IMG/VR virus record: IMGVR_UViG_3300005529_000001
Span: 208,882 to 272,881 of that record
Reading direction: 5' to 3' (one strand)
From: a virus
DNA length: 64,000 nt
Shown here: piece by piece, positions 10,117 to 62,978 of the stretch
How the letters are laid out: each line of letters begins with the position of its first letter
Position numbering within the stretch: the stretch's first letter is position 1
Position numbers and translations under genes: made by a program
Notes under the pieces: model-generated
The model's database searches: none
The model's input: the letters and a program-made list of their open reading frames with translations, nothing else
Told to the model about the DNA's origin: nothing

Positions 10117-10124
10117 ATAAGTAT
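10117..10124 (-). promoter_or_regulatory. ATAAGTAT box upstream of the 9559..10098 gene
   Basis: Same motif family; about 19 nt from the ATG. Confidence 0.25.
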
Positions 10125-10131
10125 GGCTCGC

Positions 10132-12642
10132 TCAGCACTTGCTCCAGCCACACATGGTCCCGTCCTGCTTCACCCCTCCGAGGCACGACACGCATCCCTG
10201 CTGGTAAACAAGAGTCTCTCCCCCGCACTCTGGACACCGTTTCTCGCTAGTGTGAGCCTTGGTCCCGTCAACGATGTAGCCCTTCAGGACCCGGGCGACC
10301 ACCGAGCTAAAGCTGGTGATGTCACTGTGCTTGTCTTTTTTTAGCTGCTCAACCAAGAACTGGACAGGTGTCCCATGGCGGAGAGACAAGCTGATCATCC
10401 GGGTGAAAGCCCCGTGAACGGGGTTATCAAACATGCTGACGATGTCTTTCAACACTAGCTCGTCATCATCGCCCAATGGGATCCGCAAGTTGTATGTTGC
10501 GACGCCGTCTTTCTTGCCGTTCTTGACGATGAGAGCTTTCTTTGCTTTCTTTGGGATCTCAACCTGTTCGCTGAGGCCTGCGAAGATCTCGTAAGGCCTG
10601 TCGCCCAGGGTTCCGACCAGCATCAGGTATTGCTCGCCTTTGACGTTGACCCGATGGATGTCAGCCTGCATCTCCTTGGGACGCTTGGGAGCGTGAGTCT
10701 CAACGATGATCAGGGGCTGCCCGTTTTCGGACGTTGCACCCTCGTTGACAATGACAGCATCGCGGCTGCCGATCCGGTAGATGGTGACGCCTTTGCACCC
10801 AGTTTCCCAACCATGCCAGCACAGCTCTTCGACGTCATCATTAGAAACGTCTTTGGGCAAGTTGGTGGTGTTGCTGATGCTGTGACAGATCCATTTTTGT
10901 GCAGTGGCCTGGATGTCGATCTTCTTAATGAAGTCGATCTCTTCAACAGTAGAACCAAAGTAAGGTGACTCTTTGGGATCAGACTTCCCGGTTATCTCCA
11001 TCCATTTCTTGAACCCGGGATGGATGAGATCGTAGTACTGCCACTTGTCTCCCAGGGCATCGACTTCGTCGATCCGTGACGCACGGTCTTCTTCGGTGAT
11101 CTTACGCTTGCGACGTGACTTGACGAACAAAACGGGTTCACAACCGCTGGTCGTTTGGGTCAGGATCGACATGCTGCCTGCCGGAGCCGTCGTTGTCAGA
11201 GCGATGTTACGACGACCGAACTGCTTGTAAGCACGTCGCAAGTCAGGGTCTTCATCCATGATACGCTCGATGAACGGGTGACCCTTCTCTACATCGTGTG
11301 AGAAAATCGGGAACGCACCACGCTCCGCTGCCATGTCAACCGTCGATCGGTATGCCGACAGAGCAAGCTGCCTGTAGATCTTGTCTGCAAGCTGGATGCT
11401 TGCATCGCTACCATATTGCAGGTTGCACATCGCAAATGTGTCGCCCAGAGCAGTTATGCCCAACCCAGTGCGGCGGCCGTTGACTGCAGCGTTCTTGATC
11501 TTTGTCCACAAATCACGTTCAACGCGCTTGACGTCAGTAGGCTCGGGATCAACGTCAATCTTCGCCAGAATCCGGTCAACAGCTTCAAGTTCAAGATCGA
11601 TGAGGTCATCCATCAAGCGTTGAGCTTGATACGTTGATCTGTCAAAACGCTCAAAATCGAACCTAGCATCTTTGGTGAACGGGTTATTAACGAACTTTGA
11701 CAGGTTCATCAACAACAGACGACACGAGTCGTAAGCTGACAGGGTGATCTCGCCACACGGGTTGGTGCTGATGCTGCCATAACCAGACTCGCGGTAAGCG
11801 TCAGCGGGTCCCATCTTCTCGACCTGGTCCCAAAACAGCATGCCTGGTTCGCTGCAATCACGCATCGCAGCGACGATATTCTTCCAGACTTCTTTTGCAT
11901 CAACCCATTGTTCGATGACATACTGGCCTGGCTTGCCATCAACTGGGAAACGTTGTTGGTACTTCTCTCCCTTGTTGACAGCGCGCATGAACTCGTCTGT
12001 CACGCGGATGGAGACGTTCGCACCCGTCACCTTTTTCCGGTCACGTTTGATGTTTGCAAACGTCAACACTTCCGGATGATGGACGCTGATCGTCAGCATC
12101 AGAGCACCTCGGCGACCACCCTGTGCTACTTCTCGGCAGGTGTTGGAGTACCTCTCCATGAAGACGCCGATCCCGTCGGTGGTCCTAGCTGCGTTAGCCG
12201 CCGCCATGCCACGGGGCCTGATCGTCGATAGGTCAAAGCCCACGCCACCACGACGCTTCATGATCTGGACTTCTTCCTGGTCCGTCTTCATGATGCCACC
12301 GTAGCTGTCGAAGGGCGACTGGATCACAAAGCAATTGCTGAGGCTCTGTACTTGGTATGGGTTGCCAATAGCGGAGAGGGGCCCGCCTTGAGGGACAACT
12401 TCCCATGAAGTCAACAGGCGTTTGATCTCTTCAAACGAGATTGCGTTGACGTACTTGCTTTCAGCACGATGAAATTCCCGAGCAATGCGCTCATGCATCT
12501 CATCGGGTGATCGCTCGTAGAGAACACCCTTCAGGTCTTGAAGCGCGTACTTGCCCGCAAAAACGTCTGCAGCAAGCTCATCTCCGTGAAAATATGTGAT
12601 CGAGGCATCACGCACCTCGTTGTAGGTGTATGTCGTCGTCAA
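10132..12642 (-). CDS. nrdJ: class II (adenosylcobalamin-dependent) ribonucleotide reductase, monomeric type
   Basis: 836 aa; C-terminal Cys-rich ribbon CPECGG...CVSCLGG; overall class II RNR appearance; TTG start with a GGAGAGGG SD. Confidence 0.85.
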   Translation of the reverse strand: MTTTYTYNEVRDASITYFHGDELAADVFAGKYALQDLKGVLYERSPDEMHERIAREFHRAESKYVNAISFEEIKRLLTSWEVVPQGGPLSAIGNPYQVQSLSNCFVIQSPFDSYGGIMKTDQEEVQIMKRRGGVGFDLSTIRPRGMAAANAARTTDGIGVFMERYSNTCREVAQGGRRGALMLTISVHHPEVLTFANIKRDRKKVTGANVSIRVTDEFMRAVNKGEKYQQRFPVDGKPGQYVIEQWVDAKEVWKNIVAAMRDCSEPGMLFWDQVEKMGPADAYRESGYGSISTNPCGEITLSAYDSCRLLLMNLSKFVNNPFTKDARFDFERFDRSTYQAQRLMDDLIDLELEAVDRILAKIDVDPEPTDVKRVERDLWTKIKNAAVNGRRTGLGITALGDTFAMCNLQYGSDASIQLADKIYRQLALSAYRSTVDMAAERGAFPIFSHDVEKGHPFIERIMDEDPDLRRAYKQFGRRNIALTTTAPAGSMSILTQTTSGCEPVLFVKSRRKRKITEEDRASRIDEVDALGDKWQYYDLIHPGFKKWMEITGKSDPKESPYFGSTVEEIDFIKKIDIQATAQKWICHSISNTTNLPKDVSNDDVEELCWHGWETGCKGVTIYRIGSRDAVIVNEGATSENGQPLIIVETHAPKRPKEMQADIHRVNVKGEQYLMLVGTLGDRPYEIFAGLSEQVEIPKKAKKALIVKNGKKDGVATYNLRIPLGDDDELVLKDIVSMFDNPVHGAFTRMISLSLRHGTPVQFLVEQLKKDKHSDITSFSSVVARVLKGYIVDGTKAHTSEKRCPECGGETLVYQQGCVSCLGGVKQDGTMCGWSKC

Positions 12643-12725
12643 GTTCGCCCTCTCCTGGGTGACCGATGTGGTGTGTCAGGGGGCGAGCTGGCGCCGAGCC
12701 CGCCGGTACGCTATGCAGCTCATAC

Positions 12726-14168
12726 CTATTCCGCTCCCTGGGCAGGTGCGTTGACGTCAATCAGTTTTGGCGCAACGTTGAGCTGCTCTTTTTTCATCTC
12801 TTCGAGTTTGGCAAGAATCTGCCGCTTGGACGCTTTTTCATCATCTTCGGACGCTTTCTGGAAGCTCATCACGTTGCCTGAAACAGCGAACTTGCTCCGC
12901 GCCGTATCGATGAGCAGGGGATAGACCAGACCATCTCTGCCAAATCGGTTCTTGGCCACGCACAGGCGTCCCTCTCCAGTCGCCTTCTCGTGCGTCCGCC
13001 GGCTAAGGCTGAGAACAGCATCGGCGACAAACGCCTTGCCATAAGCCTCGCTCATGTTGTTGAGGTCAACAACTTCCTGGCTGCTTCCCTCACGGTTGGA
13101 CTGAGATGCCGTCCAACCTGGGATGTGCTTCTCTTGCAAGAACGATCGAAGTTCTTCGTAGATCAGTTTCAGTTCGTGCCGCAATGAGTCGTACTGACGA
13201 CTAGAACGCATGATGTCAGCGTAGTCAATCAGCAACAACCCAGGCCGGAAACCTCGCAAGTCAAGCCTCTCCATGTGAGCACGGATGGTGTAGATGGTCG
13301 CGGTGTTGGCGGGAAACTCTTTGATCATCAAACGTCCCAGCTTCATGCCCTGGTATGCTTGGATGACCTTGTCTTTGTTCTCGATAACGACGTTGCTGTC
13401 GATGTCGCAAAGATTTGAGTCGTATCTCAACCCGACTGCAGCTTCTGATAATTCTAGCGTGTAGTGAAGGACATCAACTCCCTCCCTGAGAGCCTGGCAA
13501 CCCAACGCCACCAAGAAGTGACTCTTGCCCACACCCGTGGGCGCGACCACCACACCCAGCTCTCCAGCACCGAGCCCGCCTTGGAGGACTTCTTTGCGGT
13601 CTAGCTCTTCGATGCCGGTGGGCACACAGTTCCGCTGGAGACGAGTGAACCTTGACTCGTAGTCAGTGAAAAAATCATGTCCCAGTGACGGGGTGGTGCC
13701 CACCTGCACTGCTTTCTTGATGCCATCAACGATCTCTTCGTACTTGCCGTCTTGGATCTTTTCCGCCGCGACCATCAGCTCCTGTTTCAGAGCTTGCTTG
13801 CGGCAGAAATCGAGTGATTTTTCTTTGACGAATTGCAAATCTCCAGAGTCAGGGTTCGCACGCATCCGCATCAAGTATTCGATGATCTGGTCACGCAACA
13901 GGATGTCGCTACCCTGTTTCAGGTCATCTTTGATGATAGTCACCAGCAGCTGGAATGACGGAAAGACCTTGTATTTCTTGGAGTAATCAAAGTACCTCTC
14001 GCCCAAAAACTGAAGGTACTTGAGATCAAAGTAAGAGACGTCAAACACCTCTCCCATCTGTTCTGCCCACTGACGGTCAGTCAGCAGCGCTTGCATGACC
14101 TTCTCTTGGAAGGGTTTTCCATACTGACCGAAGCTGACGTCAGTCCTGACAGATACGTGCTCAGTCAT
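12726..14168 (-). CDS. DnaB-family replicative helicase (gp41-like)
   Basis: Walker A VVAPTGVGKSHF; start reset to ATG 14168 (ATGA coupling to the upstream stop, SD GGAGACAAGGA). Confidence 0.8.
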   Translation of the reverse strand: MTEHVSVRTDVSFGQYGKPFQEKVMQALLTDRQWAEQMGEVFDVSYFDLKYLQFLGERYFDYSKKYKVFPSFQLLVTIIKDDLKQGSDILLRDQIIEYLMRMRANPDSGDLQFVKEKSLDFCRKQALKQELMVAAEKIQDGKYEEIVDGIKKAVQVGTTPSLGHDFFTDYESRFTRLQRNCVPTGIEELDRKEVLQGGLGAGELGVVVAPTGVGKSHFLVALGCQALREGVDVLHYTLELSEAAVGLRYDSNLCDIDSNVVIENKDKVIQAYQGMKLGRLMIKEFPANTATIYTIRAHMERLDLRGFRPGLLLIDYADIMRSSRQYDSLRHELKLIYEELRSFLQEKHIPGWTASQSNREGSSQEVVDLNNMSEAYGKAFVADAVLSLSRRTHEKATGEGRLCVAKNRFGRDGLVYPLLIDTARSKFAVSGNVMSFQKASEDDEKASKRQILAKLEEMKKEQLNVAPKLIDVNAPAQGAE

Positions 14169-15145
14169 TCCTTGTCTCCAGATGTTTTGTGTTCGATATT
14201 CTCGATGCAATGGAAGGCATAGAAGAAGTCTTCTACGTCAAAGTCTCCGATCCCTTCCTTGGCTAGCTGCTTCATCAGACCCATTCTATCCGCCTTGGGC
14301 AGGAAGTTTTGGATGCGGTGATCGATCTGTTGTTGTTGGTTTGCTGATAGCATGCTACCGTCGAGGTAGACCAAACGCCAGTTACGCCTGACGTCATCTT
14401 CCTGTTCCACAATCTGTTGGAATTTGGGAGAGTCATCGGTGTGGGTGTGAGCGTAGTCGATGACCTGTTGCAACACCACGTCATCATCAATTCCCAAAAA
14501 CGGGAACAGCTTGGCGACCGTCTTGAAACCCACGCCCTTGATGCCCGGGACGTTGTCTCCGTTATCACCACACAGAGCCTTTGCCAACGCAAAATGCTTA
14601 GCTTGCACGCGAAATTCCTCCATGACTGTTTCTTTAGTCACGAAAGTTTTCTTGTGCAAGCTGTAGACCTTGGTCTGGTCGTCGAGTAGCTGATAAAGGT
14701 CCTTGTCCGATGAGACGATGATCTTGTCTTCTGCCCGCATCGGTCCGCGGCATAGGTATGCGACTAAGTCGTCTCCTTCGCAATCAGACACATACAGTTG
14801 ACACACTGGTACGCACCTTGTCATGTGCAACAACGCTTCGATCTGGTATTTCTTGTTATCATCTGAGTCAGGGATATCATCCTCGTAAAAGCGATTCAGC
14901 TTTTCGGGCTTCCGGTTCATCTTGTACTCGCTATACAGACGCCGGCGCTTGGTTGATCCCCCTCCCTCCCAACAGATGTAGACTGCCTTGGGTTGTGACT
15001 CAAAGACAATACGTCGCAACGTTTTCAAGAAACCGATGCAACCTCCCATTTGGTAGCCATGCGCTGACATCGTTGGGTAAGCGCTGTAGCTACGAACAAA
15101 GAGGTTCATCGCGTCAACGATCAGAACCGGACGCGTGGTTGACAT
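14165..15145 (-). CDS. 5'-3' exonuclease / flap endonuclease (RNase H-like)
   Basis: PIN-like N-terminus LIVDAMNLFVRSY; H3TH GDNGDNVPGIKGVGFKTVAKL. Confidence 0.85.
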   Translation of the reverse strand: MSTTRPVLIVDAMNLFVRSYSAYPTMSAHGYQMGGCIGFLKTLRRIVFESQPKAVYICWEGGGSTKRRRLYSEYKMNRKPEKLNRFYEDDIPDSDDNKKYQIEALLHMTRCVPVCQLYVSDCEGDDLVAYLCRGPMRAEDKIIVSSDKDLYQLLDDQTKVYSLHKKTFVTKETVMEEFRVQAKHFALAKALCGDNGDNVPGIKGVGFKTVAKLFPFLGIDDDVVLQQVIDYAHTHTDDSPKFQQIVEQEDDVRRNWRLVYLDGSMLSANQQQQIDHRIQNFLPKADRMGLMKQLAKEGIGDFDVEDFFYAFHCIENIEHKTSGDKE

Positions 15146-15178: not shown

Positions 15179-15454
15179 TCAGGCAGCAGGTTTGGGCGTC
15201 TCTTTGGGCACCAGAGCAACGATCTCCATCACCAGCTGCGCCACAGGTTTGGCGAGGTCTTCCGCATCAAAGGTGACGCTTTCACACGGAGCAACATGGA
15301 CGAGGTTAAGCTGCAGCTTGCCCTGGTGAAGTGTGATCGAGTGATGGTGACGCCCGAGGGGCGGGAACTTTTTCGTCAGGTGTGTCAGAAGCGTCTGCGC
15401 GCCCGCCAACGTTCCAGGGATGGGTACCAACCGTTTGTCTGTCTCTTCGTTCAT
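15179..15454 (-). CDS. hypothetical protein
   Basis: ORF; start set to the ATG at 15454 (ATGA overlap with the upstream stop). Confidence 0.4.
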   Translation of the reverse strand: MNEETDKRLVPIPGTLAGAQTLLTHLTKKFPPLGRHHHSITLHQGKLQLNLVHVAPCESVTFDAEDLAKPVAQLVMEIVALVPKETPKPAA

Positions 15455-15852
15455 CGCGTCACTAGCGCTACGTTGCCGTAACAGCTCTCCCACTCTTCTT
15501 TGTTGACCTCGAACTCCATCGCGATCCTGACATCATCATCGCCAACGACATTGTCTTCTACGACTTTAAAGAGCTCAAAGTCAGCGACCATCTTCTGCGA
15601 ATGCGGACGTTTGTCATGACGACGGATCTCAAAATCGTCTTTCGTCTCCGAATAGTCACGCCACATCTGGCTTACGCTCAGCAGCTGGCACACTTTGGGA
15701 GAAGCATGGACGTCACAGTAGCGGATCTTGGTGTTGCGGTTGTATGGGTTCCTCGTCTTGACGTGGTTGATCAACTGTTTGCGACAAGCAACGATCGCCT
15801 CGACGAGCGAGTCAACCTTGGATGAGATCTTCCATGTTTCTCTAGCGTCCAC
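15451..15852 (-). CDS. hypothetical protein
   Basis: ORF; GTG start at 15852 preceded by GGAGG with 4-nt spacing; avoids a 158-nt overlap with the upstream gene. Confidence 0.45.
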   Translation of the reverse strand: MDARETWKISSKVDSLVEAIVACRKQLINHVKTRNPYNRNTKIRYCDVHASPKVCQLLSVSQMWRDYSETKDDFEIRRHDKRPHSQKMVADFELFKVVEDNVVGDDDVRIAMEFEVNKEEWESCYGNVALVTR

Positions 15853-16276
15853 TGTTCCTCCATGATTCAACGCTTTTGGCCAAGTCTTCTGCAGTCCGGT
15901 TAGGACGGTGTTCTGTCTCTTCTGCGTGATTGGCACGTAACATGTTCGGGATCTCGCCATTCCAGTCACCCGTGTTTGCTGCCTGAAACGGTTCGACACC
16001 GGGACCCTTAATGCCGTAACCGATCAGATCGCACATCAACCACAACAGGTTTGCACGTTGGTACTCGTTCAGCGTGATGTGCCAAGCGATCGGCTTGCCA
16101 TCTTTGTCGAGAGTGACCCGGGGCGCCTCAGCGGTCGTCCAGTGATCGTACAGCGGCTTGCCTTGCAGCTTGCCCTCGAGCATCGCAATCTGGAACCTAG
16201 CCATCGCCAGATCACCCTTGGTCTCATGCAATTCTCTTCTGAGACGTTGCAGTTCAGTGTCAGGTCCCTCGCCCAT
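15842..16276 (-). CDS. hypothetical protein (144 aa)
   Basis: ORF. Confidence 0.5.
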   Translation of the reverse strand: MGEGPDTELQRLRRELHETKGDLAMARFQIAMLEGKLQGKPLYDHWTTAEAPRVTLDKDGKPIAWHITLNEYQRANLLWLMCDLIGYGIKGPGVEPFQAANTGDWNGEIPNMLRANHAEETEHRPNRTAEDLAKSVESWRNSGR

Positions 16277-18946: not shown

Positions 18947-19076
18947 GTTCTTCTCCGATTTCCTTTTTCCTACGTTCGATCAACGTAACCTGCAGGATTG
19001 CAGGTGAAGCTGATCTTACATTCTCTAAGCCGCTTAAGTTCAAGCGGCAGCGCAGAAAGATCCGCGCTGCCGAAGT
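18947..19076 (-). promoter_or_regulatory. structured 130-nt leader upstream of the SSB gene (candidate translational operator)
   Basis: Overlapping hairpins GGCAGCGC..GCGCTGCC, GCCGCTT..AAGCGGC, CCTGCA..TGCAGG, then an A-rich unstructured stretch before SD GGAGAAG. Confidence 0.35.
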
Positions 19077-19307: not shown

Positions 19308-19338
19308 GATCTAAATAGGCGGTCCGGATGGTCTTGCC

Positions 19339-20168: not shown

Positions 20169-20200
20169 GCTGTAATCTTACAAGCACAATCTTAGCTTGT

Positions 20201-27978: not shown

Positions 27979-28248
27979 TCAGGCAATAGAACCAGAGGTC
28001 GGTGTCTGGCTCTGGTTGCTAAGTACGCTCTGCTTCTCAACCAATGCCTGGCCAAGTTTAGCAGCGAACTCGGGGTCGTTTTCTGCCCGTTCGATGGCGG
28101 GACCCAAGATGTCAGCAAACGGGGCCACAAAGCCCTCCACGAGCTTTTGGATGGTTTTTCGTTCGCCAGCGTTCTGGGCACGGCCCAAGGCTTCGCGGTA
28201 TGCCGGGTCTTCTCTCAAGCGCTTGAGAAACTCGTCCCTCGTTTTCAT
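27979..28248 (-). CDS. small hypothetical protein (89 aa)
   Basis: ORF; N-terminal FLKRLRED resembles the shared propeptide motif. Confidence 0.5.
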   Translation of the reverse strand: MKTRDEFLKRLREDPAYREALGRAQNAGERKTIQKLVEGFVAPFADILGPAIERAENDPEFAAKLGQALVEKQSVLSNQSQTPTSGSIA

Positions 28249-32331: not shown

Positions 32332-32346
32332 GACCCTAAATAGGCC

Positions 32347-35209: not shown

Positions 35210-35238
35210 TTTTCTCTCCTGTCACCGGGTTCGATCGT

Positions 35239-35245
35239 AACTATC
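35239..35245 (-). promoter_or_regulatory. TAACTAT box upstream of the tube gene
   Basis: Same motif family; about 24 nt from the ATG. Confidence 0.25.
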
Positions 35246-38844: not shown

Positions 38845-38862
38845 CTAGTGCCTCTGCGCTCT

Positions 38863-38869
38863 AAGTATC
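38863..38869 (-). promoter_or_regulatory. TAAGTAT box upstream of sheath gene 1
   Basis: Same motif family; about 19 nt from the ATG. Confidence 0.3.
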
Positions 38870-42177: not shown

Positions 42178-42186
42178 GTAAGTACC
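42178..42186 (-). promoter_or_regulatory. TAAGTAC box upstream of sheath gene 2, inside CTATAGCG...CGCTATAG inverted repeat
   Basis: Same motif family. Confidence 0.25.
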
Positions 42187-45569: not shown

Positions 45570-45646
45570 GAGCTTAACTATGGCGCTGTGAGAGCCCCGA
45601 TCTAGGCTCTAAGCTCCCCAGCGATCACCAGAACGGATAACCGAGA

Positions 45647-46189: not shown

Positions 46190-46213
46190 GGCATTTCCGA
46201 CATTAAATATGTC

Positions 46214-52258: not shown

Positions 52259-52315
52259 CGTGTGGCTAAATAGGCGGCTGGAGATCGATGAACCACCCTC
52301 AGCGGTTCTCTCTCA

Positions 52316-52585: not shown

Positions 52586-52862
52586 CTAGCACCTCCGAGA
52601 TGGGCTGGGGGACCCGCTCTCGGCAGTAACTAGGCACGTGGCCCTTGACGATGCTCAGGATGTCTCGAGAAGAGACGAGGGTGCACCGTCCGGTGATCTC
52701 GGCGATCCTTCGCTTTGGGATGTCATAGTGAGGAAACGCTGACGAAGCGTGGAACCAGCAGCGCTTGATGCCCAGGTCACGAGCCATCTCGTGAAGGTTC
52801 TCTACCGAATACGGAAGACAGACCAGGTGCCTGGCGTTGTCGCAGACGTACCTGAGGTCCAT
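52542..52862 (-). CDS. hypothetical protein (106 aa)
   Basis: ORF. Confidence 0.4.
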   Translation of the reverse strand: MDLRYVCDNARHLVCLPYSVENLHEMARDLGIKRCWFHASSAFPHYDIPKRRIAEITGRCTLVSSRDILSIVKGHVPSYCRERVPQPISEVLDGHQKNPESPDSGS

Positions 52863-55627: not shown

Positions 55628-55951
55628 TCAGGGCAGGAAAACCACCACCGAGACTGAGTCGGTGAGGTTGTGCAGCTGGCTCATCAGCCTGTTGTGCTCC
55701 CAAGCGTGCGGCTCTTCGCTCATGCAACCAAAATAGAGGAGGTTCCTGGCGGGAGTGTCGTGCTTGTCGTTAAAGCTGTCAGCGAAGTTGGCCAACACCA
55801 AGCACGTCATGTCATCGTCGATGCCGAAGCGGACGACCATCCCAGGCTCGACCTCGCCCACTGGGATGCGAGGCTCGCCAACGCCGTTGGCCCCGACGAC
55901 GTGGAACCTACTCGGCAGCCCAGCTCTTCCGGACAAAGCCGCTGACGACAT
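55628..55951 (-). CDS. hypothetical protein (107 aa)
   Basis: ORF. Confidence 0.4.
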   Translation of the reverse strand: MSSAALSGRAGLPSRFHVVGANGVGEPRIPVGEVEPGMVVRFGIDDDMTCLVLANFADSFNDKHDTPARNLLYFGCMSEEPHAWEHNRLMSQLHNLTDSVSVVVFLP

Positions 55952-56198
55952 CGACCATCACCTTGGGACCCGTGTTGAGCACCACGCCCGTCCTGGGAAC
56001 CCCATCATGCTTGTTGACTTGCAACGAGAAACCCGCGGACTTTGTCACCACAAAGGCCTGCGCCAGCAACATCCCGTTCACTTCTTGTGCAACCCGCATC
56101 GCAAGCGCACGTCCGTCGAGGCGGCTGCCGTTTGGGCGCCTGCGCTCTGTCCTATCGTTCTTCATGTGTCCATCTCCGTGCGATGCATCTGATCGCAA
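55908..56198 (-). CDS. hypothetical protein (96 aa)
   Basis: ORF; overlaps the next gene by 44 nt. Confidence 0.35.
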   Translation of the reverse strand: MRSDASHGDGHMKNDRTERRRPNGSRLDGRALAMRVAQEVNGMLLAQAFVVTKSAGFSLQVNKHDGVPRTGVVLNTGPKVMVDVVSGFVRKSWAAE

Positions 56199-56204: not shown

Positions 56205-56576
56205 TCGGTGGAAGCGCCGGGAATCGAACCCGGGTCCGCAACTGCTAACCGTCTACGTCTACATGCTTGTCCCTTCTGGGTGTTCATCCTCGGGCGGGAC
56301 TATCCGGTGGAACTTTTACGACCAACACCGTCACGGTCGGCACTACGTTTTACGCCCAGCGCTTTGGCGTTTTTGCATCCAGGTAGCTGGGTGCGCCCCC
56401 ACGCATTCTGTTGCTAGGCCGCGTGGTGCCCCAGACGATCAGGCCGCGAGGCGGACGTCGTCAGCGAAGCCGTTGTCGTTGGCGTTCATTCGTCACTGAG
56501 GTTTTTAGACCGGACCTTGGTGCCACCGGTGCATGCAGCAAACAGTCTCACGATCACGTCGAAACCTGTCGCCCCC
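56205..56576 (-). ncRNA. ssrA: tmRNA (ssrA), one-piece, tag peptide ANDNGFADDVRLAA
   Basis: 5' GGGGGCGACAGGTTTCGAC; 3' CCGGGTTCGATTCCCGG-CGCTTCC-ACC (T-arm, acceptor, discriminator); GCATGC and TAAAAA conserved elements; in-frame tag GCC AAC GAC AAC GGC TTC GCT GAC GAC GTC CGC CTC GCG GCC TGA. Confidence 0.85.
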
Positions 56577-56670: not shown

Positions 56671-57083
56671 TCACCGCTTGTTGCCGCGGAACTTCCGGCT
56701 TGATGGTGCCGGGCCCTTTCGGGGATAGTTGTCGGGCAACATGTCAGTGTCTTCGGCAGACATGATGACAGGAATCGTTTCACGGTTGTCTTCGACAACT
56801 TGATCACCCGGTCCCTTGAGCTTGGCCGAGGTCTCAACATCGTGTTGGCCAAGCTTGCGTCGCTGGCCCTCAAGCCAGGAGTCAAGCGGGTCAACCATCT
56901 TGTTTCCCAAGCTAGCGACAACGATCGACTTGACCCGGTTGTAGATCTGGCGAAGCTGCTCGTCAGTCGTCGCCCGCGGGTCACCCTCTATGTACTCTTT
57001 CTCAAATGGATGCTGGATCTCATACCTCTCGTAGAGGACGTTGTAGAGAGCCAACAGCTCCTTGGCATTGATGTTCAGCTTCA
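56671..57083 (-). CDS. hypothetical protein (137 aa from the internal ATG)
   Basis: MKLNINAKELLALYNV...; ATGA coupling with the upstream 61-aa ORF. Confidence 0.45.
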
Positions 57084-57266
57084 TGTCTCTTCTGCTTCTT
57101 GTTTCGCCTTGATGGCAGCCTCGAGCTTGGCTTGTTTCTCCGCTGCGAGTGCAGCCGGGAGCCGACGACGCCAGGTCGCAGCCTTCTCCTTGGACCGTGC
57201 GTTGAACCGCGTACGTTTTGCCTGCAACCGTCGGCGCTGGACAGACGTTGTTGTGGGTTTTCTCAT
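57081..57266 (-). CDS. small basic protein (61 aa)
   Basis: ORF. Confidence 0.35.
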   Translation of the reverse strand: MRKPTTTSVQRRRLQAKRTRFNARSKEKAATWRRRLPAALAAEKQAKLEAAIKAKQEAEET

Positions 57267-57285
57267 GTCGGCTCCCGGACACTCT

Positions 57286-57600: not shown

Positions 57601-57689
57601 GTCAGCGACGGCCGTCTCAGGCCGCCAACCAGCTCAATCTAACACAGATGCGCAGAATGTGTACAACCGTTCGGTCGCTTACCGTGGCA

Positions 57690-58244
57690 TCACTTAAACG
57701 AGCCGCGGATCGCGCCGATGTCTTGCGTCACTCCCTCGAGAGATGACAGCCCATCCTGGACTTTGCGGAGGGCGTCCTGCAACGCTTTCTTCATCTCGGG
57801 GGTCCTTGCTGAGCGCAGGGCATTTGCAAAAGCATCGGGCAGCTTGAAAAGACCTGCGTCAACCACGTGAGCCCAGATGGTGACTGCGTTGACAGCGGGT
57901 TGAGTCTGGCCTTCGTTGATCTTCCCCTCGCCCACCGCTCTGGGAAGGTTGGTCCGCATGCCCGTGGGTTCTTCTGGTTCTTCTGGGAGATCGTCGCTAA
58001 TATCATCGCCAGCCATGTCAACGTGACCGCGGCGGTGGCGATAGAGAGCCTTGACTTTCTCGCCCGGATCGAAATCGGGAACCTGGCTGCGACGTAAGAA
58101 ACGGCGTCCGCCCTTTTCGGGCTCGACCATCGGGTCATCTGGTAGCTGTCGCTTTCCCCAGTGACGAGCGTCGCCTTCTGAACCGGTGATCCCCAGCTTC
58201 GCTTCTCGGATCTCACGCTTGAGTTGCCCGATTGTCATCCGCAT
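57690..58244 (-). CDS. protein with N-terminal MRMTIGQLKREIREAK motif (candidate capsid-targeted protein)
   Basis: ORF; shared propeptide-like motif. Confidence 0.5.
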   Translation of the reverse strand: MRMTIGQLKREIREAKLGITGSEGDARHWGKRQLPDDPMVEPEKGGRRFLRRSQVPDFDPGEKVKALYRHRRGHVDMAGDDISDDLPEEPEEPTGMRTNLPRAVGEGKINEGQTQPAVNAVTIWAHVVDAGLFKLPDAFANALRSARTPEMKKALQDALRKVQDGLSSLEGVTQDIGAIRGSFK

Positions 58245-58274: not shown

Positions 58275-58736
58275 TCAGGGAGCCAGCGTCAACGTTCCGG
58301 ACGCTGCGCAAACAAGCCAGCCCTTGCCGTTGGACCAGAGGCCAACGCTGCCGCCCTGGGCGACTGTCAGCTTGGTGCCGTTGACGGTCGTCATTGACGT
58401 GCTTGAGGGTGTCTGAGTGCCAGACATCATGGCCATCGAACCGGTCAGCAAGTAGGGGTAGATGCCCAGAGTGTCAACGACCATCAGATGGCTGCCTGGG
58501 AAAGATGCCGCTGCGGGCAATGACCCAGTGAACTGTCCCTGGCCTGCTGAACCAGTGACGGGGACCTGGTAGTAGCCTGGCGAGCTAAGCGCCACCAAGC
58601 TGCCGCTTCCCGCAGCTGTCGCAACAGAAGCGACTTCATAAGCGCGAGTCGTCGGACCGACAACTGTCACCTGACCGGCGACGCTTAGGTTTCCGCTGCC
58701 ATCGTCTACAAAACCGCGAGAGTCGATCGTTGCCAT
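58275..58736 (-). CDS. small beta-rich virion protein (153 aa); paralog of 45647..46189
   Basis: Shared N-terminus; ATAAGTAG motif about 20 nt upstream; SD AAGGAT. Confidence 0.5.
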   Translation of the reverse strand: MATIDSRGFVDDGSGNLSVAGQVTVVGPTTRAYEVASVATAAGSGSLVALSSPGYYQVPVTGSAGQGQFTGSLPAAASFPGSHLMVVDTLGIYPYLLTGSMAMMSGTQTPSSTSMTTVNGTKLTVAQGGSVGLWSNGKGWLVCAASGTLTLAP

Positions 58737-58804
58737 GTGTTATCCTTGTGATAAGTAGGTCAGCGATCTGCTTAAAACAGACAGCCCCAACAAATCCTTA
58801 AACG

Positions 58805-58855: not shown

Positions 58856-60778
58856 TCAGATGATGTTGAGGTCCATGACCGTGACGGTTCCGTAGAAGTC
58901 GCTACGAACGACCTTCTTGCCGTACCGGGTCATGACGCCCTTACGAGGTGTGAAATCCTCAGGGGCGAAGATCGTCGGAGTCACGATGAGGGGGACGTAC
59001 GGTGAGTACACGTACCCAGTCTCGAGGTAGCTGCCGCCCTTGTACCCGACGAGGATGCGGTTCCTCGGGAAGTACGGGTCCTTGTAGACCGTGAAGCGGT
59101 TGCTCAGGGTGCCGATCGCCTCTGCACCGATGGTGAAGGGCGAACCGACCTGACCCTCGCCGTCGATCGAGAACTTCGGCTTGTAGAGGACCGAGGCCTC
59201 GAGGATGGTGGCGACATCCGGGCTGGTGACCATGAAGTTGGCCGAGCCGCGGAGCGTCTTGCGGTGGATGGTGTTGGCAACGTCGATGATGGTCTCGACC
59301 AGGGTCTCGTACCACTCACGAACCGTACCAGTGAACTGCGGACCGATGCTGAGCGAGGTGTTCAGCGTGACCGGTTGGCCCGTCAGCTTGTTGACGAACT
59401 TGCCCGGAGCGCGGCTCCAGTACATGTTGGCGCCGTTGGCCTGGGTCACGAGGTCGTTCAGGATCTCGCGGTCAATCTCGAGAGCGATCTGCTCGCTCAG
59501 GATGCTGGTCAGCTCGACCTCTGCGTCCATCGAGTGGTACGCGTTGAGGTCCTGTGCCAGCTCAGGGCTCCACCGGGCGCGCAGCTTGCGCGTGGTGGCG
59601 GTGATTGCGATCGACTCGATCTTGATGTCGATCTCTGGGATCGCCGGGGTCGGGTTGACGTTGAAGTCAGACTCGAACGATGGGATCGTCAGCGTTGCAC
59701 CAGCGGTGCTGTCGACAGTCAGTGAGTCAGCGATTGCCATCGATGCAACGATCTGGCCGGAACCCGAGAGGACCAGCTGAGGACCAGCACCGTTGACAGC
59801 GACTGCGAAGACCAGCTGGACCTGTGTGCCGTTGAGCGGAGCAGGCGTGAAGGTCGTGCCGTTGAAGTTACCGCGCTTGTTCAGGCGGCGCAGGTTGAGG
59901 ACGCCGTTACCTGACTGGTAAGACTGGCCCCAAGCGAACGTGCCACCGAGACCGGCGCCCGTTGACTGGAAGTTGAAGACCGCGAGCTGCTCGATGGCGA
60001 GGAAGTCACCGTTCGGGATCGCCGTCGTGATCGCCGAGACGTCAAGGTGACCGAACTGGATCCACTCGGAACCGTTCTGGAGATCAACCTCGAGCTGGGG
60101 ATCGAAGTTCAGGAAGCGAGCGTTGGTGCCCGAGAAGTCCGTCGAGGACTTGACGAAGTTACCAACAACGAAGGCTCCGTTGGTGCCGTTGAAGGCTCCG
60201 AAGTTCAGCATCGAACCTGAGACAGAACCGGAGGCGTGCACCTTGGTGTAGCCCACGTTGACCAGGTCGTAGAAACCGCCCGTTGCGAGCGATCCCGACT
60301 GGATGCCCTTGCCGGTTGGGTTGTTGTAGATCGACTGGCCGGAACCGTAGGTCGCTGCGCTTGCACCGCCTGGCTGGTTCAGCTGCAGACCTGACTGGCC
60401 ACCGACGTTGCTGCCGTAGGTGTAGTCAAGGTAGAAGATCAGGCCCGAGGGGAGCGACATCGGCTGGATCGAGACGAGCTCGTTGGCGACGAGGCCACCG
60501 AAGACACGACGGACGATCGGGAAGGCGATGTTGGTGAAGCCCTGGATCTGACCCGAGGAAGCAACGTTCGCGCCGCCCGTGGACAGCGAGTTGCCGACTT
60601 CCTTCAGGACCTGAGCTGCCTGGTTCTCCAGGAGCTGGGCCATCGTCTCGCGCTTGTGACCGTCAAGGCCGCGGAGCAAGCCAGTGCGGCTCCACTTCTC
60701 GACCAGGCGGGCACGCTCGGCGCCGACGTGCCGCTCGCGGATGCCAGCGGCTAGTTGTTCCATTGTAAAGAACTTCAT
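58856..60778 (-). CDS. major capsid protein, T4 gp23-like
   Basis: RKLRARWSPELAQDLNAYHSMDAEVELTSILSEQIALEIDREI aligns to T4 gp23 SRQLKAAYSIELAQDLRAVHGMDADAELSGILATEIMLEINREV; C-terminus YVYSPYVPL...TRYG; SD GGAGAG. Confidence 0.9.
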   Translation of the reverse strand: MKFFTMEQLAAGIRERHVGAERARLVEKWSRTGLLRGLDGHKRETMAQLLENQAAQVLKEVGNSLSTGGANVASSGQIQGFTNIAFPIVRRVFGGLVANELVSIQPMSLPSGLIFYLDYTYGSNVGGQSGLQLNQPGGASAATYGSGQSIYNNPTGKGIQSGSLATGGFYDLVNVGYTKVHASGSVSGSMLNFGAFNGTNGAFVVGNFVKSSTDFSGTNARFLNFDPQLEVDLQNGSEWIQFGHLDVSAITTAIPNGDFLAIEQLAVFNFQSTGAGLGGTFAWGQSYQSGNGVLNLRRLNKRGNFNGTTFTPAPLNGTQVQLVFAVAVNGAGPQLVLSGSGQIVASMAIADSLTVDSTAGATLTIPSFESDFNVNPTPAIPEIDIKIESIAITATTRKLRARWSPELAQDLNAYHSMDAEVELTSILSEQIALEIDREILNDLVTQANGANMYWSRAPGKFVNKLTGQPVTLNTSLSIGPQFTGTVREWYETLVETIIDVANTIHRKTLRGSANFMVTSPDVATILEASVLYKPKFSIDGEGQVGSPFTIGAEAIGTLSNRFTVYKDPYFPRNRILVGYKGGSYLETGYVYSPYVPLIVTPTIFAPEDFTPRKGVMTRYGKKVVRSDFYGTVTVMDLNII

Positions 60779-60797
60779 GAATTCTCTCCGTTTACGT

Positions 60798-60804
60798 AAG
60801 TAGT
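60798..60804 (-). promoter_or_regulatory. TAAGTAG box (coding strand CTACTTA) about 20 nt upstream of the MCP start
   Basis: Member of the recurring TAA[A/G/C]TA upstream motif family. Confidence 0.3.
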
Positions 60805-60828
60805 TGGTTCAATCTGCGTTGTTTAGCA

Positions 60829-62949
60829 TCACCGCTTGGAGATGCCCGCGAGCTGTGCCCAGCGCTCCACGTCAGCACCCTCGTTGAGGGACTGCGTAGA
60901 AGCAGGACGCGTTGCCCGAGAAGCGGAGCCGAGGATCCTGCGATCCGCGCCTTCCTTCAGGGACTGTGTCGGTGCTGCCAGGGTCCTGACCAGGCTCTGG
61001 TAGACCAGCTTCGCTTCCCGCACCGTCTGAGCCTCATCCAGCTGCTTGATGACCTGCGCCTTTTGCTTGGCAGTCAGGCCCTCAGTCTGGAGGAGCTTGT
61101 TGGTGAAGAGCAGCTTCGCGTTGAGCAGATTCGTTTCTGCCAACTTCTTGCGGACATCATCGCCGGCCTTGTCCGCGGACCGTTCGGCAACGCTATTCGA
61201 GCGTGCCTCTTGCAGCTTCTTGGCGGCAACCGCCTTGATCTGCTCAAGCTTCTGGGTGCGGGCGAGCGACTCGTTGAAGCGCTTTGCCACCACCGCGTAC
61301 TCCTTCTTGACCTCAGCCAAGCGCTTGCCGTTCTTGGCAGCGCGGGCCTTTGCCGCTTCCTTCTTCAGGGTTGCAGCACGAGCCTTGGCGCGCTCCTGGA
61401 GCGTCTTCTCAAAGCCCAGGCGCTTGACTGCCTCGCCGTGGCGAGCAGCCGGGTTGCTCTTGTCCTTTGACGGGACTGACGTTGCTGAAGCGCCAAAGTC
61501 ATCACGGGTACGCTCGTCGCCGACCTGGTCGAGTGCAGCTTCCTGCATCGCCATGTCCTTCGTCTTCAGGCCAGCGGCAGTGCCCTGGTCCATCTGGTCC
61601 TGGGACTCGTCCATCTGGTCATCGTCGGCTTCGTCCATCTGGTCGTAACCTTGATCCATCTGGTCCTGAGCCTCTTCGAGGTCCTCATCAGCCTCACCGA
61701 GCGGGCGGGCTGCCTTGGCAGGAGAGAGGTCAGTGATCTCTTGGTCATGAGGGTCACCCTCACCCTTGCCGCCACCAAAGTCGTCAAGGATGTTCGCGCC
61801 GCCAGGGCCATCGCCCCAAGCAGCCGGCTTGGTCTCCTCACGAAGCGAGCGCATCCGAGCAATCTCGCGACGGAGCATCTTCTCATCGATCTCGACGATC
61901 GTGTCGTCGCTTAGCTCGCGGCTTTCCATCTGTGACTCCTGGTCTTGTCCACCCATGCCCATGCCGCCCTGACCTGCCTGATCGCCGTCAAAGTCGCCAT
62001 CTGCATCCATCTCTAGGCCCTCGCCACCCTCTTCGTCTTCCTCACCCGTGATGAGGTCCACGCCGACGGCGTCGAGGTTATCCTCAACATCATCCGGCAA
62101 ACCGGTCAGCTTCAGCGTAAGATCCGCTTCGTTCATCTGACCCTTGTTCGTCTTCTGTGACATTGTCGTTGACTCCTGGAGCTTGTTGAGTACCTTGAAG
62201 GTGTTCTCGAGCGTGATCTCGTATGAGCTCTTCAACGCAGGCTCGGCAACCGATTCCTGCACGTAGTCATACATATCCTCCACACGAGAAATCATCAGAG
62301 CGATGTGCTCTCCGTAGGAGGAAGTGGCCTTGACTGCTTCTCCTGCATCACGAAACAGCTTAGCTTGCTTCACTACCTCGCCCAACATGGCCTTAAAGCT
62401 CTTGGTTGGGATGGGCTTAGCGTTCTTCTTGGCAGCGCTCAGGATCGGCTTGAGAGAGTCAAGAGACTCCATGCTGATCTCATACTCAACCTCTTCGGGC
62501 CGGGGCTGCGGCTTGCCAAACATCGGCGGGGGAACAGCGGGACCAGGAGCGTTTGTGGGCATCGCCTCGTGTGCTGCGGGGGTCCCGCTACACAGCGCGT
62601 CCAGGTCGATCGTAATCTTGCCCTCGGCATCGGGCGGGGTAATCCCACTAGCTGGCATGTCACCAACTGGACCAGCTGCGCTCATGCTTCCTGCAGGGGC
62701 TGAAACGGGCTCTACGTCAGTCAACAGCTCGCCTTCGGGCGCAGGTGCTCCAGGCTCAGCAGGGGCTGCGTCGTCTGAAGCCATGTTGCCTTCAGCTTCC
62801 TCGTCAACCTCTTGCAGGATCGCCCTGTCAATGAAATCACGGATGCGTGGCGTCACAGCTTCGGTCAGCGCACGAAGAGCGTTCTCCTCAGCGACCTTCT
62901 TGATCTGCTTGACGTCCGCTAGCGCTTCTTCGAACAGCTGCTTGGGCAT
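60829..62949 (-). CDS. prohead scaffolding protein (gp22-like, acidic)
   Basis: 706 aa, Glu/Asp/Ala-rich, coiled-coil; sits between MCP and core genes; N-terminus ALRALTEAV (LxE site). Confidence 0.65.
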   Translation of the reverse strand: MPKQLFEEALADVKQIKKVAEENALRALTEAVTPRIRDFIDRAILQEVDEEAEGNMASDDAAPAEPGAPAPEGELLTDVEPVSAPAGSMSAAGPVGDMPASGITPPDAEGKITIDLDALCSGTPAAHEAMPTNAPGPAVPPPMFGKPQPRPEEVEYEISMESLDSLKPILSAAKKNAKPIPTKSFKAMLGEVVKQAKLFRDAGEAVKATSSYGEHIALMISRVEDMYDYVQESVAEPALKSSYEITLENTFKVLNKLQESTTMSQKTNKGQMNEADLTLKLTGLPDDVEDNLDAVGVDLITGEEDEEGGEGLEMDADGDFDGDQAGQGGMGMGGQDQESQMESRELSDDTIVEIDEKMLRREIARMRSLREETKPAAWGDGPGGANILDDFGGGKGEGDPHDQEITDLSPAKAARPLGEADEDLEEAQDQMDQGYDQMDEADDDQMDESQDQMDQGTAAGLKTKDMAMQEAALDQVGDERTRDDFGASATSVPSKDKSNPAARHGEAVKRLGFEKTLQERAKARAATLKKEAAKARAAKNGKRLAEVKKEYAVVAKRFNESLARTQKLEQIKAVAAKKLQEARSNSVAERSADKAGDDVRKKLAETNLLNAKLLFTNKLLQTEGLTAKQKAQVIKQLDEAQTVREAKLVYQSLVRTLAAPTQSLKEGADRRILGSASRATRPASTQSLNEGADVERWAQLAGISKR

Positions 62950-62971
62950 GTCGTCTCCGGAAATCCTAAGT

Positions 62972-62978
62972 TAAGTAT
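62972..62978 (-). promoter_or_regulatory. TAAGTAT box upstream of the scaffold gene
   Basis: Same motif family; about 23 nt from the ATG. Confidence 0.3.

Follow-up and report, generated by a model that had tools for sequence, protein, structure and literature searches.

A short TA(C/T/G)TTA box as the probable core of a phage-specific promoter class in an uncultured jumbo phage

Analysis of a 64,000-nucleotide stretch of a viral genome (IMG/VR record IMGVR_UViG_3300005529_000001, positions 208,882 to 272,881; hereafter the window) revealed a short box that very probably serves this phage as a promoter signal of its own, one that differs from host-type as well as T4-type promoters. The box reads a-TA-(C>T>G)-TTA on the coding (minus) strand, with an A preferred just before the hexamer. 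Judging from its sequence context, the box is likely to be the core, and apparently the sole element, of a phage-specific -10-only promoter class that serves all virion operons and some others. We propose that it is a -10-type hexamer read on the non-template strand without a -35 partner, and that transcription would start approximately 5–7 nt past its last A. A start codon located 4–8 nt past the box would then give a leaderless mRNA, while the other sites would give a 14–46 nt leader carrying a Shine-Dalgarno (SD) sequence. The class would drive all recognisable virion-morphogenesis operons and several unassigned genes elsewhere.

Sequence, position and conservation of the box

An earlier note on this DNA had listed seven words, all of which were found; on the coding strand, six of them read TACTTA and one reads TAGTTA (35238..35243), with four of the seven displaced by 1 nt from the coordinates originally given. 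The note had also described a fixed distance of 19–24 nt to the start codon, while we measured 15–36 nt from box end to start codon at these seven sites. In the head module, TACTTA at 62972..62977 (all window boxes listed here are on the minus strand) lies 22 nt before the ATG of a 706-aa gene (60829–62949), with an SD between, and the copy at 60797..60802 lies 18 nt before the ATG of the gp23-type major capsid gene (58856–60778). The next copy (58752..58757), located 15 nt before the ATG of a 153-aa gene (58275–58736), is preceded by a terminator-like hairpin that follows the capsid gene. Further TACTTA boxes precede the two tail sheath paralogs, namely 42179..42184, 36 nt before the ATG of paralog 1 (38954–42142) with an SD between, and 38862..38867, 17 nt before the ATG of paralog 2 (35698–38844). 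The TAGTTA box lies 28 nt before the ATG of the tail tube gene (34721–35209), again with an SD between. The remaining TACTTA (10118..10123) is found 19 nt before the ATG (10098) of a 179-aa gene located after RNR, with the SD GGAG, and sits in the loop of a perfect 8-bp hairpin with the arms CTGAGCGA/TCGCTCAG. The motif is indeed shared by head and tail genes, as the note had stated; its 'replication-module gene' is this 179-aa ORF, which has no assignment.

Eight further coding-strand boxes had been overlooked. Five of these read TATTTA, and they are located at 63880..63885 (31 nt before the ATG of a 93-aa gene, 63567–63848, with an SD between), 52267..52272 (8 nt before the ATG of a 283-aa gene, 51407–52258), 46204..46209 (14 nt before the ATG of a 180-aa gene, 45647–46189), 32337..32342 (5 nt before the ATG of a 97-aa gene, 32038–32331, which is followed by a 1249-aa gene), and 19312..19317 (4 nt before the ATG of a 76-aa gene, 19077–19307). 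The boxes at 52267, 32337 and 19312 lack an SD and are of the leaderless type. Two others read TAGTTA: one (52627..52632), inside the 3′ end of the preceding ORF, lies 41 nt before the ATG of an 89-aa gene (52316–52585) with the SD GGAGG, and the other (45575..45580), preceded by a strong hairpin, lies 5 nt before the GTG of a 410-aa head-tail adaptor-like gene (44337–45569) without an SD. The eighth, TACTTA at 28020..28025, is the weakest site of all, as it lies 46 nt before the ATG of a 1081-aa gene (24728–27973) and has no clear SD. The consensus (A/C)TA(C/G)TTA proposed earlier is corrected to the form given above, which takes in the missed TATTTA variant.

Within the window, TA(C/G/T)TTA occurs 15 times on the coding strand versus twice on the opposite strand, and TACTTA alone 7 times versus once; TAATTA, looked for as the fourth third-position variant, had no occurrence. 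Intergenic DNA, which accounts for 2,789 nt (4.4%) of the window, holds 13 of the 15 boxes. In a scan of approximately 4,000 hexamers up to 50 nt upstream of starts in the window, TACTTA (p = 3e-7) and TATTTA (p = 8e-7) ranked first and second. We further analysed 134 kb (positions 222,574–356,576; 36% of the genome) of the 369,506-bp source contig (ENA ERZ27279688, k141_1055159) with the database's independent gene calls. Here, TACTTA ranked at the top of all 4096 hexamers, with 15 of its 19 copies located within 50 nt upstream of a same-strand start (p = 2.6e-20), and the corresponding figures were 7 of 9 for TATTTA (p = 5.5e-10) and 6 of 11 for TAGTTA (p = 2.3e-7). Taken together, 28 of the 39 boxes in the 134 kb are so placed versus about one expected, and approximately 10 of the 39 lie within genes or distant from any start. 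The source genome has 56% GC and a TA dinucleotide observed/expected ratio of 0.41, and the box is A/U-rich.

Position matrices built from 18 sites of this genome and 123 sites of its relatives displayed information only in the hexamer and the base preceding it, with no -35 partner, TGn or longer motif in either set. Five of the six hexamer positions are invariant, including the final A; the preceding base is A in 70 of the relatives' 123 sites, and a purine is preferred 7 nt downstream of the box.

Across 49 non-redundant related loci (~800 kb), TACTTA or TATTTA was the top upstream hexamer in every GC class (25/37, p = 1.6e-21; 23/41, p = 2e-18; 40/122, p = 1.9e-20), and the motif frequency upstream of genes is above background in these loci as well as in the window and the 134 kb, the comparison on which the earlier note had staked its proposal. 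The hexamer is found 16–24 nt upstream of the capsid gene in 18 related loci whose flanks differ, and orthologs of the 'MRTLY' gene retain the box, 4–5 nt and the ATG within unrelated flanks; the exact box before the capsid gene is missing in many AT-rich relatives. T-rich variants seen ahead of the capsid gene among relatives include TTTGAA, TTTTTG and TATTTT. Since the box-bearing relatives span 36–66% GC, they probably infect diverse hosts. The clade is uncultured and widespread and comprises phages of 300–370 kb; relatives of the capsid protein at 73–91% identity number in the hundreds. The nearest cultured relatives of this protein share only 30–50% identity, and no match was returned when 10 kb of the window were compared by megablast with 50,697 phage genomes.

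Spacing, strand and gene sets

The distance between box and ATG is bimodal. The phage itself has sites at 4, 5, 5, 5, 6, 6, 6, 6, 7 and 8 nt, followed by a single 10 nt and then by 14–46 nt. Among 137 sites of 25 relatives, 17 lie at 4–5 nt, none at 9–11 nt, and the others form a hump at 16–36 nt, whereas control words of the same composition displayed a flat spacing profile. An SD is present at 1 of 25 sites of the short-spacing class versus 66 of 76 sites of the long-spacing class. This bimodality therefore implies an RNA 5′ end approximately 5–7 nt past the box, and the 4–8 nt ATG spacing, together with the purine 7 nt downstream, would put the box at roughly -12/-10 to -7/-5. Three sigma70-type promoters of the same genome have a -10 hexamer that ends exactly 6 nt before the database-called ATG, which indicates that leaderless starts are used in this genome.

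Throughout the 134 kb, the strand of the box is that of the gene, including the rare opposite-strand genes, and this rule holds likewise in one relative (L090). Three of the four opposite-strand transcription units in the 134 kb carry a box in their own orientation, at 22, 7 and 6 nt from the ATG, and two opposite-strand boxes sit in divergent intergenic regions of 46 and 51 nt.

The box-bearing virion operons include terminase, portal, prohead protease, capsid, adaptor, both sheaths, tube and large tail proteins. This virion module is T4-type, whereas the replisome (DnaE, PolA-like, DnaB) is not, and clamp-coupled late transcription therefore cannot be assumed. Box density is 20 in the 60-kb structural part versus about 12 in the 59-kb non-structural part, where one box precedes a 91-aa gene followed by DnaE. 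Because boxes precede some non-structural genes too, the class may not be exclusively 'late', and the box promoters are presumably middle or late. A separate sigma70-type class (TTGAAC-N17-19-TAAGAT or TACATT), which has the -10 and -35 elements expected of such promoters, is apparently the one that serves some accessory and early-looking genes. A generic sigma70 scan revealed no enrichment (6 sites versus 3.6 expected), nor did a terminator scan (14 versus 16.4 expected), and hairpins before boxes were not significantly enriched (median best -11.9 versus -10.7 kcal/mol in random windows). A family of small proteins with the N-terminal pattern 'L..L(R/K).(I/L)(I/L)RE' has four members under the strict pattern, each encoded just downstream of a box-bearing gene; a tie of the box to this family was discarded, as none of the four lies directly behind a box.

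Candidate readers and known promoter systems

The search for a recognition factor covered several regions. In the 134 kb, phmmer, PHROGs and Pfam yielded no homolog of gp55, gp33 or gp45, and when T4 gp55 and gp45 were compared by phmmer with all ORFs of ~1.1 Mb of clade capsid-region loci, no hit fell below E = 0.2. The window ORFs and the unassigned ORFs of 17 kb of flanking DNA, which together make up essentially all ORFs of an 80-kb region, were scanned with PHROGs and Pfam and revealed no sigma region 2 or RNA polymerase (RNAP) family, and Pfam hits for called genes along the 134 kb included neither sigma region 2 nor RNAP beta/beta′-like proteins. Two ORFs considered as gp55, namely the 179-aa ORF after RNR, which is of gp55-like size, and a 182-aa ORF (15451–15999), were rejected, as neither has similarity to gp55 or any PDB chain. 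No common C-terminal clamp-binding tail was seen in small proteins. The clade encodes a conserved 95-aa protein with a zinc ribbon and a sigma-region-4.2-like part (contig positions 223,036–223,323), which sits behind an early-type promoter.

T4 late promoters carry TATAAATA at -13 to -6, with variants mostly at -13, and are recognised by gp55 together with gp33 and the gp45 clamp (PMC2988020, PMC7892883). The box resembles them as a single short A/T box in the predicted -10 region, without a -35 element, before virion genes of a T4-type module (PMC2988020, PMC7892883). If the A of leaderless ATGs is taken as +1, the box would span about -11 to -6 and share A-12 (57% of sites), T-11, A-10, T-7 and A-6 with T4, but differ at -9 and -8, the positions at which T4 bases are flipped into pockets by gp55 (PMC7892883). 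The two classes share the missing -35 and the location at virion genes, whereas the 8-bp consensus does not occur here: TATAAATA had no copies on either strand of 80 kb, and ATAAATA none on its coding strand. The box further departs from T4 in its sequence, in the many transcripts predicted to be leaderless, in the DnaE/DnaB-type replisome and in the lack of a gp55, gp33 or gp45 homolog in the 36% of the genome read. The earlier note had proposed a phage promoter class other than that of the T4 late box, and this proposal is supported by orientation, the missing -35 element, conservation, enrichment, spacing and the absence of TATAAATA.

Thermus phage P23-45 has two promoter classes, one with -10/-35 elements and one lacking a -35, and RNAP is moved to the latter by phage proteins directed at sigma region 4 or the beta flap (PMC3950348). 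Its promoters are of the extended -10 type (TGn with a TATAAT-like element) and use host sigmaA (PMC3950348). The likeness to P23-45 and its gp39 would lie in the two promoter classes and the clade's 95-aa sigma-region-4-like protein, whereas the box has no TGn and ends in A, and the 95-aa protein is unrelated to gp39. Phages phiKZ, 201phi2-1 and AR9 are jumbo phages with very short -35-less motifs near the start site, and the box is likewise a very short -35-less motif of a jumbo phage; unlike in these systems, the virion module is T4-type, the motifs differ, and Pfam and PHROGs searches revealed no split beta/beta′-like RNAP subunits in the 134 kb. The short promoters of phiKZ, 201phi2-1 and the AR9 non-virion RNAP are those of phage-encoded multisubunit RNAPs (PMC5312081, PMC11512511). 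In bacterial leaderless promoters, such as those of mycobacteria, only a few nt separate the -10 element from an ATG with which the transcript itself begins, and no SD is present (PMC4633059). The canonical spacing of exactly 6 nt is seen at the three sigma70-type promoters described above, while at the box a phage-specific hexamer replaces TAnnnT and the modal spacing is ~1 nt shorter (4–6 nt). In our literature search, neither TACTTA nor the motif was linked to a phage promoter.

We see an even chance that the box is read by host RNAP together with a phage-specified factor functionally like T4 gp55, and not by a phage polymerase. A specificity factor or polymerase outside the known phage families (neither gp55 nor phiKZ-type RNAP), with the 95-aa sigma4-like protein switching the RNAP, is a rather doubtful alternative; in that case, the early-expressed 95-aa protein would be a stand-alone sigma4 decoy that acts on the beta flap or on -35 elements.

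Alternative explanations and implications

A promoter would act on DNA, and the box could instead be a signal in RNA, where a phage or host endoribonuclease cuts polycistronic transcripts a few nt past UA(C/U/G)UUA to give leaderless or short-leader mRNAs. Strand, position and bimodal spacing are informative about an RNA 5′ end at that place and not about its origin, and primer extension cannot tell initiation from processing at putative T4 late promoters (PMC2988020). Moreover, as hairpin terminators show no enrichment ahead of the boxes, many of these fall within transcripts that could arise by read-through. We nevertheless consider cleavage improbable: the boxes of isolated opposite-strand genes, in divergent regions of 46–51 nt, would require a precursor from a second promoter, and none is visible there. 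In addition, no nuclease with such a 6-nt specificity was identified in the 134 kb, and the architecture and gene set fit known -10-only phage promoters. Quite improbable, too, is a reading of the boxes as common -10 hexamers of the host's sigma70 type with a weak or missing -35, used by the housekeeping holoenzyme and not phage-specific. The box does start with TA and take the place of a -10 element, host sigmaA reads the middle and late promoters of P23-45 although these have no -35 (PMC3950348), and the -10 consensus compared, TAnnnT, may not be the host's. Yet the box ends in A instead of the near-invariant final T, it has neither a TGn extension nor a TTGACA-like -35, the same genome holds the separate class with a proper -35 and a TAAGAT or TACATT -10, and the box is conserved over relatives of 36–66% GC with probably diverse hosts.

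We give very little weight to a translation-initiation element, whether an A/U-rich enhancer, an S1-binding site or an SD substitute, although the box is rich in A and U within a genome of 56% GC, lies near starts and stands in for the SD in the short-spacing class. The long-spacing class has a normal SD between box and ATG, and its spacing varies over 14–46 nt, so that the box has no set place with respect to the ribosome; an exact sequence is not a feature of S1 and enhancer sites, in contrast to five invariant positions of six, and the 9–11 nt gap would be left unexplained. Compositional bias could make TA-rich hexamers pile up intergenically if they are kept out of coding DNA, given the low TA ratio (0.41) and the two TA dinucleotides of the box. 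However, the reverse-complement words have no copies on the coding strand of the window's intergenic DNA versus 13 for the box, unbiased ranking places the box words above all other hexamers, control words of the same composition lack the spacing pattern, and box orientation flips with gene orientation. Such an artefact is hence extremely improbable, and is effectively refuted by the strand and orientation tests. It is just as hard to credit that the other strand is the relevant one, where TAA(A/G/C)TA resembles the last six bases of T4 TATAAATA and would drive antisense or upstream-directed transcription. TAAATA, the reverse complement of TATTTA, does equal T4 positions -11 to -6, but there are no ORFs in that direction, the preceding-A preference is found on the coding strand, and the 4–8 nt spacing and SD-containing leaders make sense on that strand only. 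Spacing and orientation ruled out this T4-like reading.

If the decoy mechanism were true, it would represent a new reprogramming of host RNAP together with large-scale use of leaderless mRNA by a jumbo phage. As the phage's own promoter signal, the box would provide the first regulatory map for a large uncultured jumbo-phage clade, which has no DNA match by megablast and whose capsid relatives among sequenced phage isolates reach at most 50% identity. It would mark transcription units and correct start codons, including those of predicted leaderless genes that gene callers handle poorly, and would serve as a concrete bait for the specificity factor. Finally, a T4-type virion module under a non-T4 promoter signal, beside a non-T4 replisome, bears on the modularity of late-gene control in large phages.

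Occurrence and conservation of the box

The seven words cited in the earlier note as candidate phage promoters are all present in the window, four of them displaced by one base, and read TACTTA (six) or TAGTTA (one) on the coding strand, which for nearly all window genes is the minus strand. A full search for TA[C/G/T]TTA, hereafter the box, found 15 coding-strand copies against two on the other strand (TACTTA, 7:1; TAGTTA, 3:1; TATTTA, 5:0) and no TAATTA anywhere in the window, so that the earlier list, although its sites are real, had missed the TATTTA variant and eight sites. The window has a GC content of ~56% and is strongly depleted of the TA dinucleotide (observed/expected 0.41). Thirteen of the 15 boxes lie in intergenic DNA, which totals 2,789 nt (4.4%), whereas the remaining two are no more than 50 nt from a start codon. 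When ~4,000 hexamers were ranked without bias by their enrichment in the 50 nt upstream of starts, TACTTA came first, the overlapping word ATTTAG second and TATTTA third, all three ahead of SD-like words.

The window derives from a metagenomic contig of 369,506 bp (ENA ERZ27279688), of which we analysed 134,003 nt (positions 222,574-356,576; 36% of the genome); window position w equals contig position 318,729 - w. On both strands of this portion, using the database's own gene calls and upstream windows that cover 2.9% of strand positions, TACTTA, TATTTA and TAGTTA were again the top words, with 15 of 19 (p=2.6e-20), 7 of 9 (p=5.5e-10) and 6 of 11 copies (p=2.3e-7), respectively, within 50 nt upstream of a same-strand start. 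The frequency of the motif upstream of genes is thus above background. Only four transcription units in the 134 kb run on the opposite strand, and in three of them a box on that strand precedes the respective ATG by 22, 7 and 6 nt; two of these boxes fall between divergent genes, in gaps of only 46 and 51 nt. The fourth unit, the gene of a sigma4-like protein, has a sigma70-type promoter in place of the box. The rule that the box follows the gene strand was repeated in one relative's locus.

Applying the same unbiased test to 49 non-redundant loci of relatives (~800 kb; capsid identity 68-90%; GC 36-66%) returned TACTTA or TATTTA as the top upstream hexamer in each GC class: TACTTA at high GC (25 upstream of 37 in total, p=1.6e-21), and TATTTA at mid (23 of 41, p=2e-18) and low GC (40 of 122, p=1.9e-20). 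Before the capsid gene, the hexamer is kept 16-24 nt from the ATG in 18 loci with varying flanking bases; T-rich variants (TTTGAA, TTTTTG, TATTTT) stand there in other, mostly AT-rich, relatives, and the exact box is therefore not universal at this gene. Orthologs of the MRTLY... gene in four lineages keep the box, 4-5 nt and the ATG between unrelated flanks. The word AACCAAC, directly upstream of the capsid-gene box (window 60803-60815, minus strand), is conserved in most of 80 related loci (L002-L081) and persists also in lineages where T-rich variants (TTTGAA, TTTTTG, TTTATT) replace the box.

Position matrices built from 18 sites in this genome and 123 in relatives confined the information to the hexamer, whose positions 1, 2, 4, 5 and 6 were set by the search pattern itself and not derived from the matrices; at position 3 the preference is C > T > G, never A. 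The tests of enrichment and strand bias used whole hexamers; for single-position variants, the analysis was limited to counts per strand. Weaker features are an A preceding the box (70 of 123 sites), in this genome an upstream flank poor in T, and a purine preferred 7 nt after the box; neither a -35 element nor a TGn extension appeared in these matrices. The TACTTA box after the RNR gene lies in the loop of a perfect 8-bp hairpin (window 10100-10135, minus strand; CTGAGCGA-GCCATACTTA-TCGCTCAG) that overlaps the downstream SD and may act as a terminator or attenuator, or regulate that one site through its structure.

Spacing to the start codon

The spacing between box and start codon is the most informative result. 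The earlier note had described a fixed distance of 19-24 nt, but its seven sites actually lie 15-36 nt from the start codon, measured from the box end. Ten further sites in this genome lie at 4, 5, 5, 5, 6, 6, 6, 6, 7 and 8 nt, without an SD and in one case before a GTG start; the other sites within 50 nt of a start comprise one at 10 nt and the rest at 14-46 nt. The 137 TA[CT]TTA sites of 25 non-redundant relatives (GC ≥ 0.46) form a sharp peak at 4-5 nt (17 sites) and, apart from it, a broad hump at 16-36 nt; none of them falls at 9-11 nt. Reverse-complement and same-composition control words gave no comparable pattern in these relatives. An SD-like word accompanies 1 of 25 short-class sites and 66 of 76 long-class sites, there between box and ATG, and the short class is found before many unrelated genes.

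Such bimodal spacing would be expected if the RNA 5' end lay ~5-7 nt after the box: in the short class the ATG itself would be the 5' end, giving a leaderless mRNA, and in the long class the leader would have to be long enough for an SD. A separate sigma70-type promoter class in this genome, TTGAAC/CTGAAC/GTTACA/TTGTAC-N17-19-T(A/T)AGAT, offers a calibration. It occurs at window 20175-20180, 19013-19018 and 57637-57642 (minus strand) and at L001:5113-5118 and L082:13351-13356 in two further loci, and it precedes accessory and replication-side genes (an HD phosphohydrolase, a GIY-YIG gene, a metallophosphatase and, 66 nt ahead, the gp32-like SSB). At three of these promoters (GTTACA/TTGAAC/CTGAAC-N17-18-TAAGAT) exactly 6 nt separate the end of the -10 hexamer from the database-called ATG, a spacing that predicts leaderless mRNAs and so indicates that leaderless starts are used here; by this calibration, the box would occupy the same slot as a -10 hexamer.

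Genes behind the boxes

A box is present at every recognisable morphogenesis operon. It leads a 126-aa gene followed by the terminase, a 105-aa gene followed by the portal and a 287-aa gene followed by the protease, as well as the genes of a 706-aa protein, the gp23-type major capsid protein (58856-60778, minus strand), the adaptor-like protein, the tail tube (34721-35209, minus) and large tail proteins. Two adjacent, unusually long tail-sheath paralogs (1,062 and 1,048 aa; 38954-42142 and 35698-38844, minus) each have their own box, as do two paralogous small proteins (58275-58736 and 45647-46189, minus) that begin MA.I.S.G..DDGS.N. The window also encodes several baseplate and virion proteins, and its contig contains genes for a T4-type terminase, portal and S77 prohead protease. 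An N-terminal helix, M(R/K)x(R/T)LGxL(K/R)x(I/L)(I/L)RE..., is common to many small proteins of this phage and its relatives (window 9184-9555, 8921-9187, 34090-34587, 35276-35683 and 57690-58244, minus; L082:19654-19875), and all members found sit just downstream of a box-bearing gene. This helix terminates in (I/L)-x-E, which resembles the cleavage motif of T4-type prohead proteases, and it might be a capsid-targeting or propeptide sequence.

Genes with assigned replication or nucleotide-metabolism functions mostly have no box. Their block (window 1-21.4 kb) encodes PNK, nucleotidyltransferase, MazG-like, MT-A70, dTMP kinase, ThyX, a class-II-like RNR, DnaB, exonuclease, dUTPase, UvsX, a gp32-like SSB and a PolA-like fragment. 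About 12 boxes fall in the 59-kb non-structural part, among them one that precedes a 91-aa gene with DnaE behind it and several ahead of small unassigned genes, against 20 in the 60-kb structural part. For the virion operons, "late" can reasonably be inferred; for the class as a whole, whose boxes extend beyond the structural part, it is only a possibility.

Despite the T4-type virion module, the replisome combines a DnaE-type Pol III alpha (1,263 aa; PHP, DNA_pol3_alpha), the PolA-like fragment and a DnaB-type helicase (L084:15672-19463, contig ~332.6-336.4 kb; window 20201-21430 and 12726-14210), with UvsX and the SSB, whereas that of T4 consists of gp43, gp45 and gp41. Megablast of 10 kb of the window found no DNA match among 50,697 phage genomes; capsid relatives number hundreds at 73-91% identity, many on 300-370 kb contigs, and the phage is a member of an abundant, uncultured jumbo-phage clade. 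A tmRNA (56206-56576, minus; ARAGORN tag peptide ANDNGFADDVRLAA; full-length match to Rfam RF00023, 87 bits), the sole Rfam match in the window, accounts for most of the 472 nt, nominally intergenic, that separate ORFs 56671-57282 and 55908-56198. Auxiliary genes on the contig (L001:5886-6380; L084:13149-13670; L088:15004-15762 and 11743-12918; L085:2345-2635) include a peptide deformylase, a cupredoxin/copper-binding protein, an Fe-type superoxide dismutase, a CCA-adding/poly(A) polymerase-family enzyme, TnsA-like and GIY-YIG/HNH endonucleases and an LD-carboxypeptidase (Peptidase_S66).

Probable promoter type and a sigma4-like protein

The T4 late promoter, which has an 8-bp box from -13 to -6 and lacks a -35 (PMC2988020), is the closest known architecture. 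Its gp55 reads the non-template strand and flips A-12, A-9 and A-8 into pockets (PMC7892883). With +1 placed at the A of the 5-nt-spaced leaderless ATGs, our box spans -11 to -6 and, together with its preferred preceding A, shares A-12, T-11, A-10, T-7 and A-6 with T4 but differs at -9 and -8; as this register is uncertain by ±1 nt, we treat the correspondence as no more than a lead. The data do not support membership in the gp55 system, because the consensus differs, the replisome is non-T4 and no gp55, gp33 or gp45 homolog was found in the 36% of the genome examined or in ~1.1 Mb from loci of relatives. In 80 kb, the canonical T4 late box TATAAATA did not occur. Comparative and positional evidence supports the earlier proposal that these boxes form a phage promoter class different from that of T4.

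The box does not fit the sigma70 definition either, since its last base is A and it has neither a -35 nor a TGn. The strand, orientation and control-word tests refute both a compositional artefact and a reverse-strand reading, as box orientation follows gene orientation. The 5'-end geometry would fit an RNA-processing signal just as well, but boxes lie within short divergent intergenic regions that contain no other promoter-like element, and we consider this reading improbable. It is also unlikely that the box acts in translation, since its distance to the ATG ranges widely at sites that have an SD.

The sole sigma-related gene found lies outside the window, on the opposite strand (contig 223,036-223,323; L089:463-750, minus). 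It encodes a 95-aa protein that combines a Cys/His-rich segment at the N-terminus with a sigma region 4.2 helix-turn-helix at the C-terminus (Pfam Sigma70_r4, 34.7 bits; cut-off 24.1); in the PDB, the protein best matches region 4 of housekeeping SigA, sigma4-beta-flap chimeras among the entries. Its promoter, TTGAAC-N18-TACATT, is conserved in this phage and one relative, and with ~200 homologs (60-85% identity) on the clade's 340-357 kb contigs it is a core gene of the clade. The protein may be a sigma4 mimic or a -35-binding regulator. Phage proteins that target sigma4/beta flap, such as P23-45 gp39, T4 AsiA and gp33, shift RNAP from -10/-35 to -35-less promoters (PMC3950348); by analogy, the 95-aa protein, as a sigma4 module on its own behind a host-type promoter, could have an RNAP-shifting role here.

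Taken together, the best-supported reading of the box is a putative -10-only, phage-specific promoter, because it is a strand-specific exact hexamer without a -35 whose orientation flips with the gene, it stands one half-turn to one turn upstream of the predicted RNA 5' end, and it is conserved across a clade spanning 36-66% GC. Beside this promoter class, the widespread predicted leaderless transcripts and the conserved sigma4-like protein are notable features of these phages.
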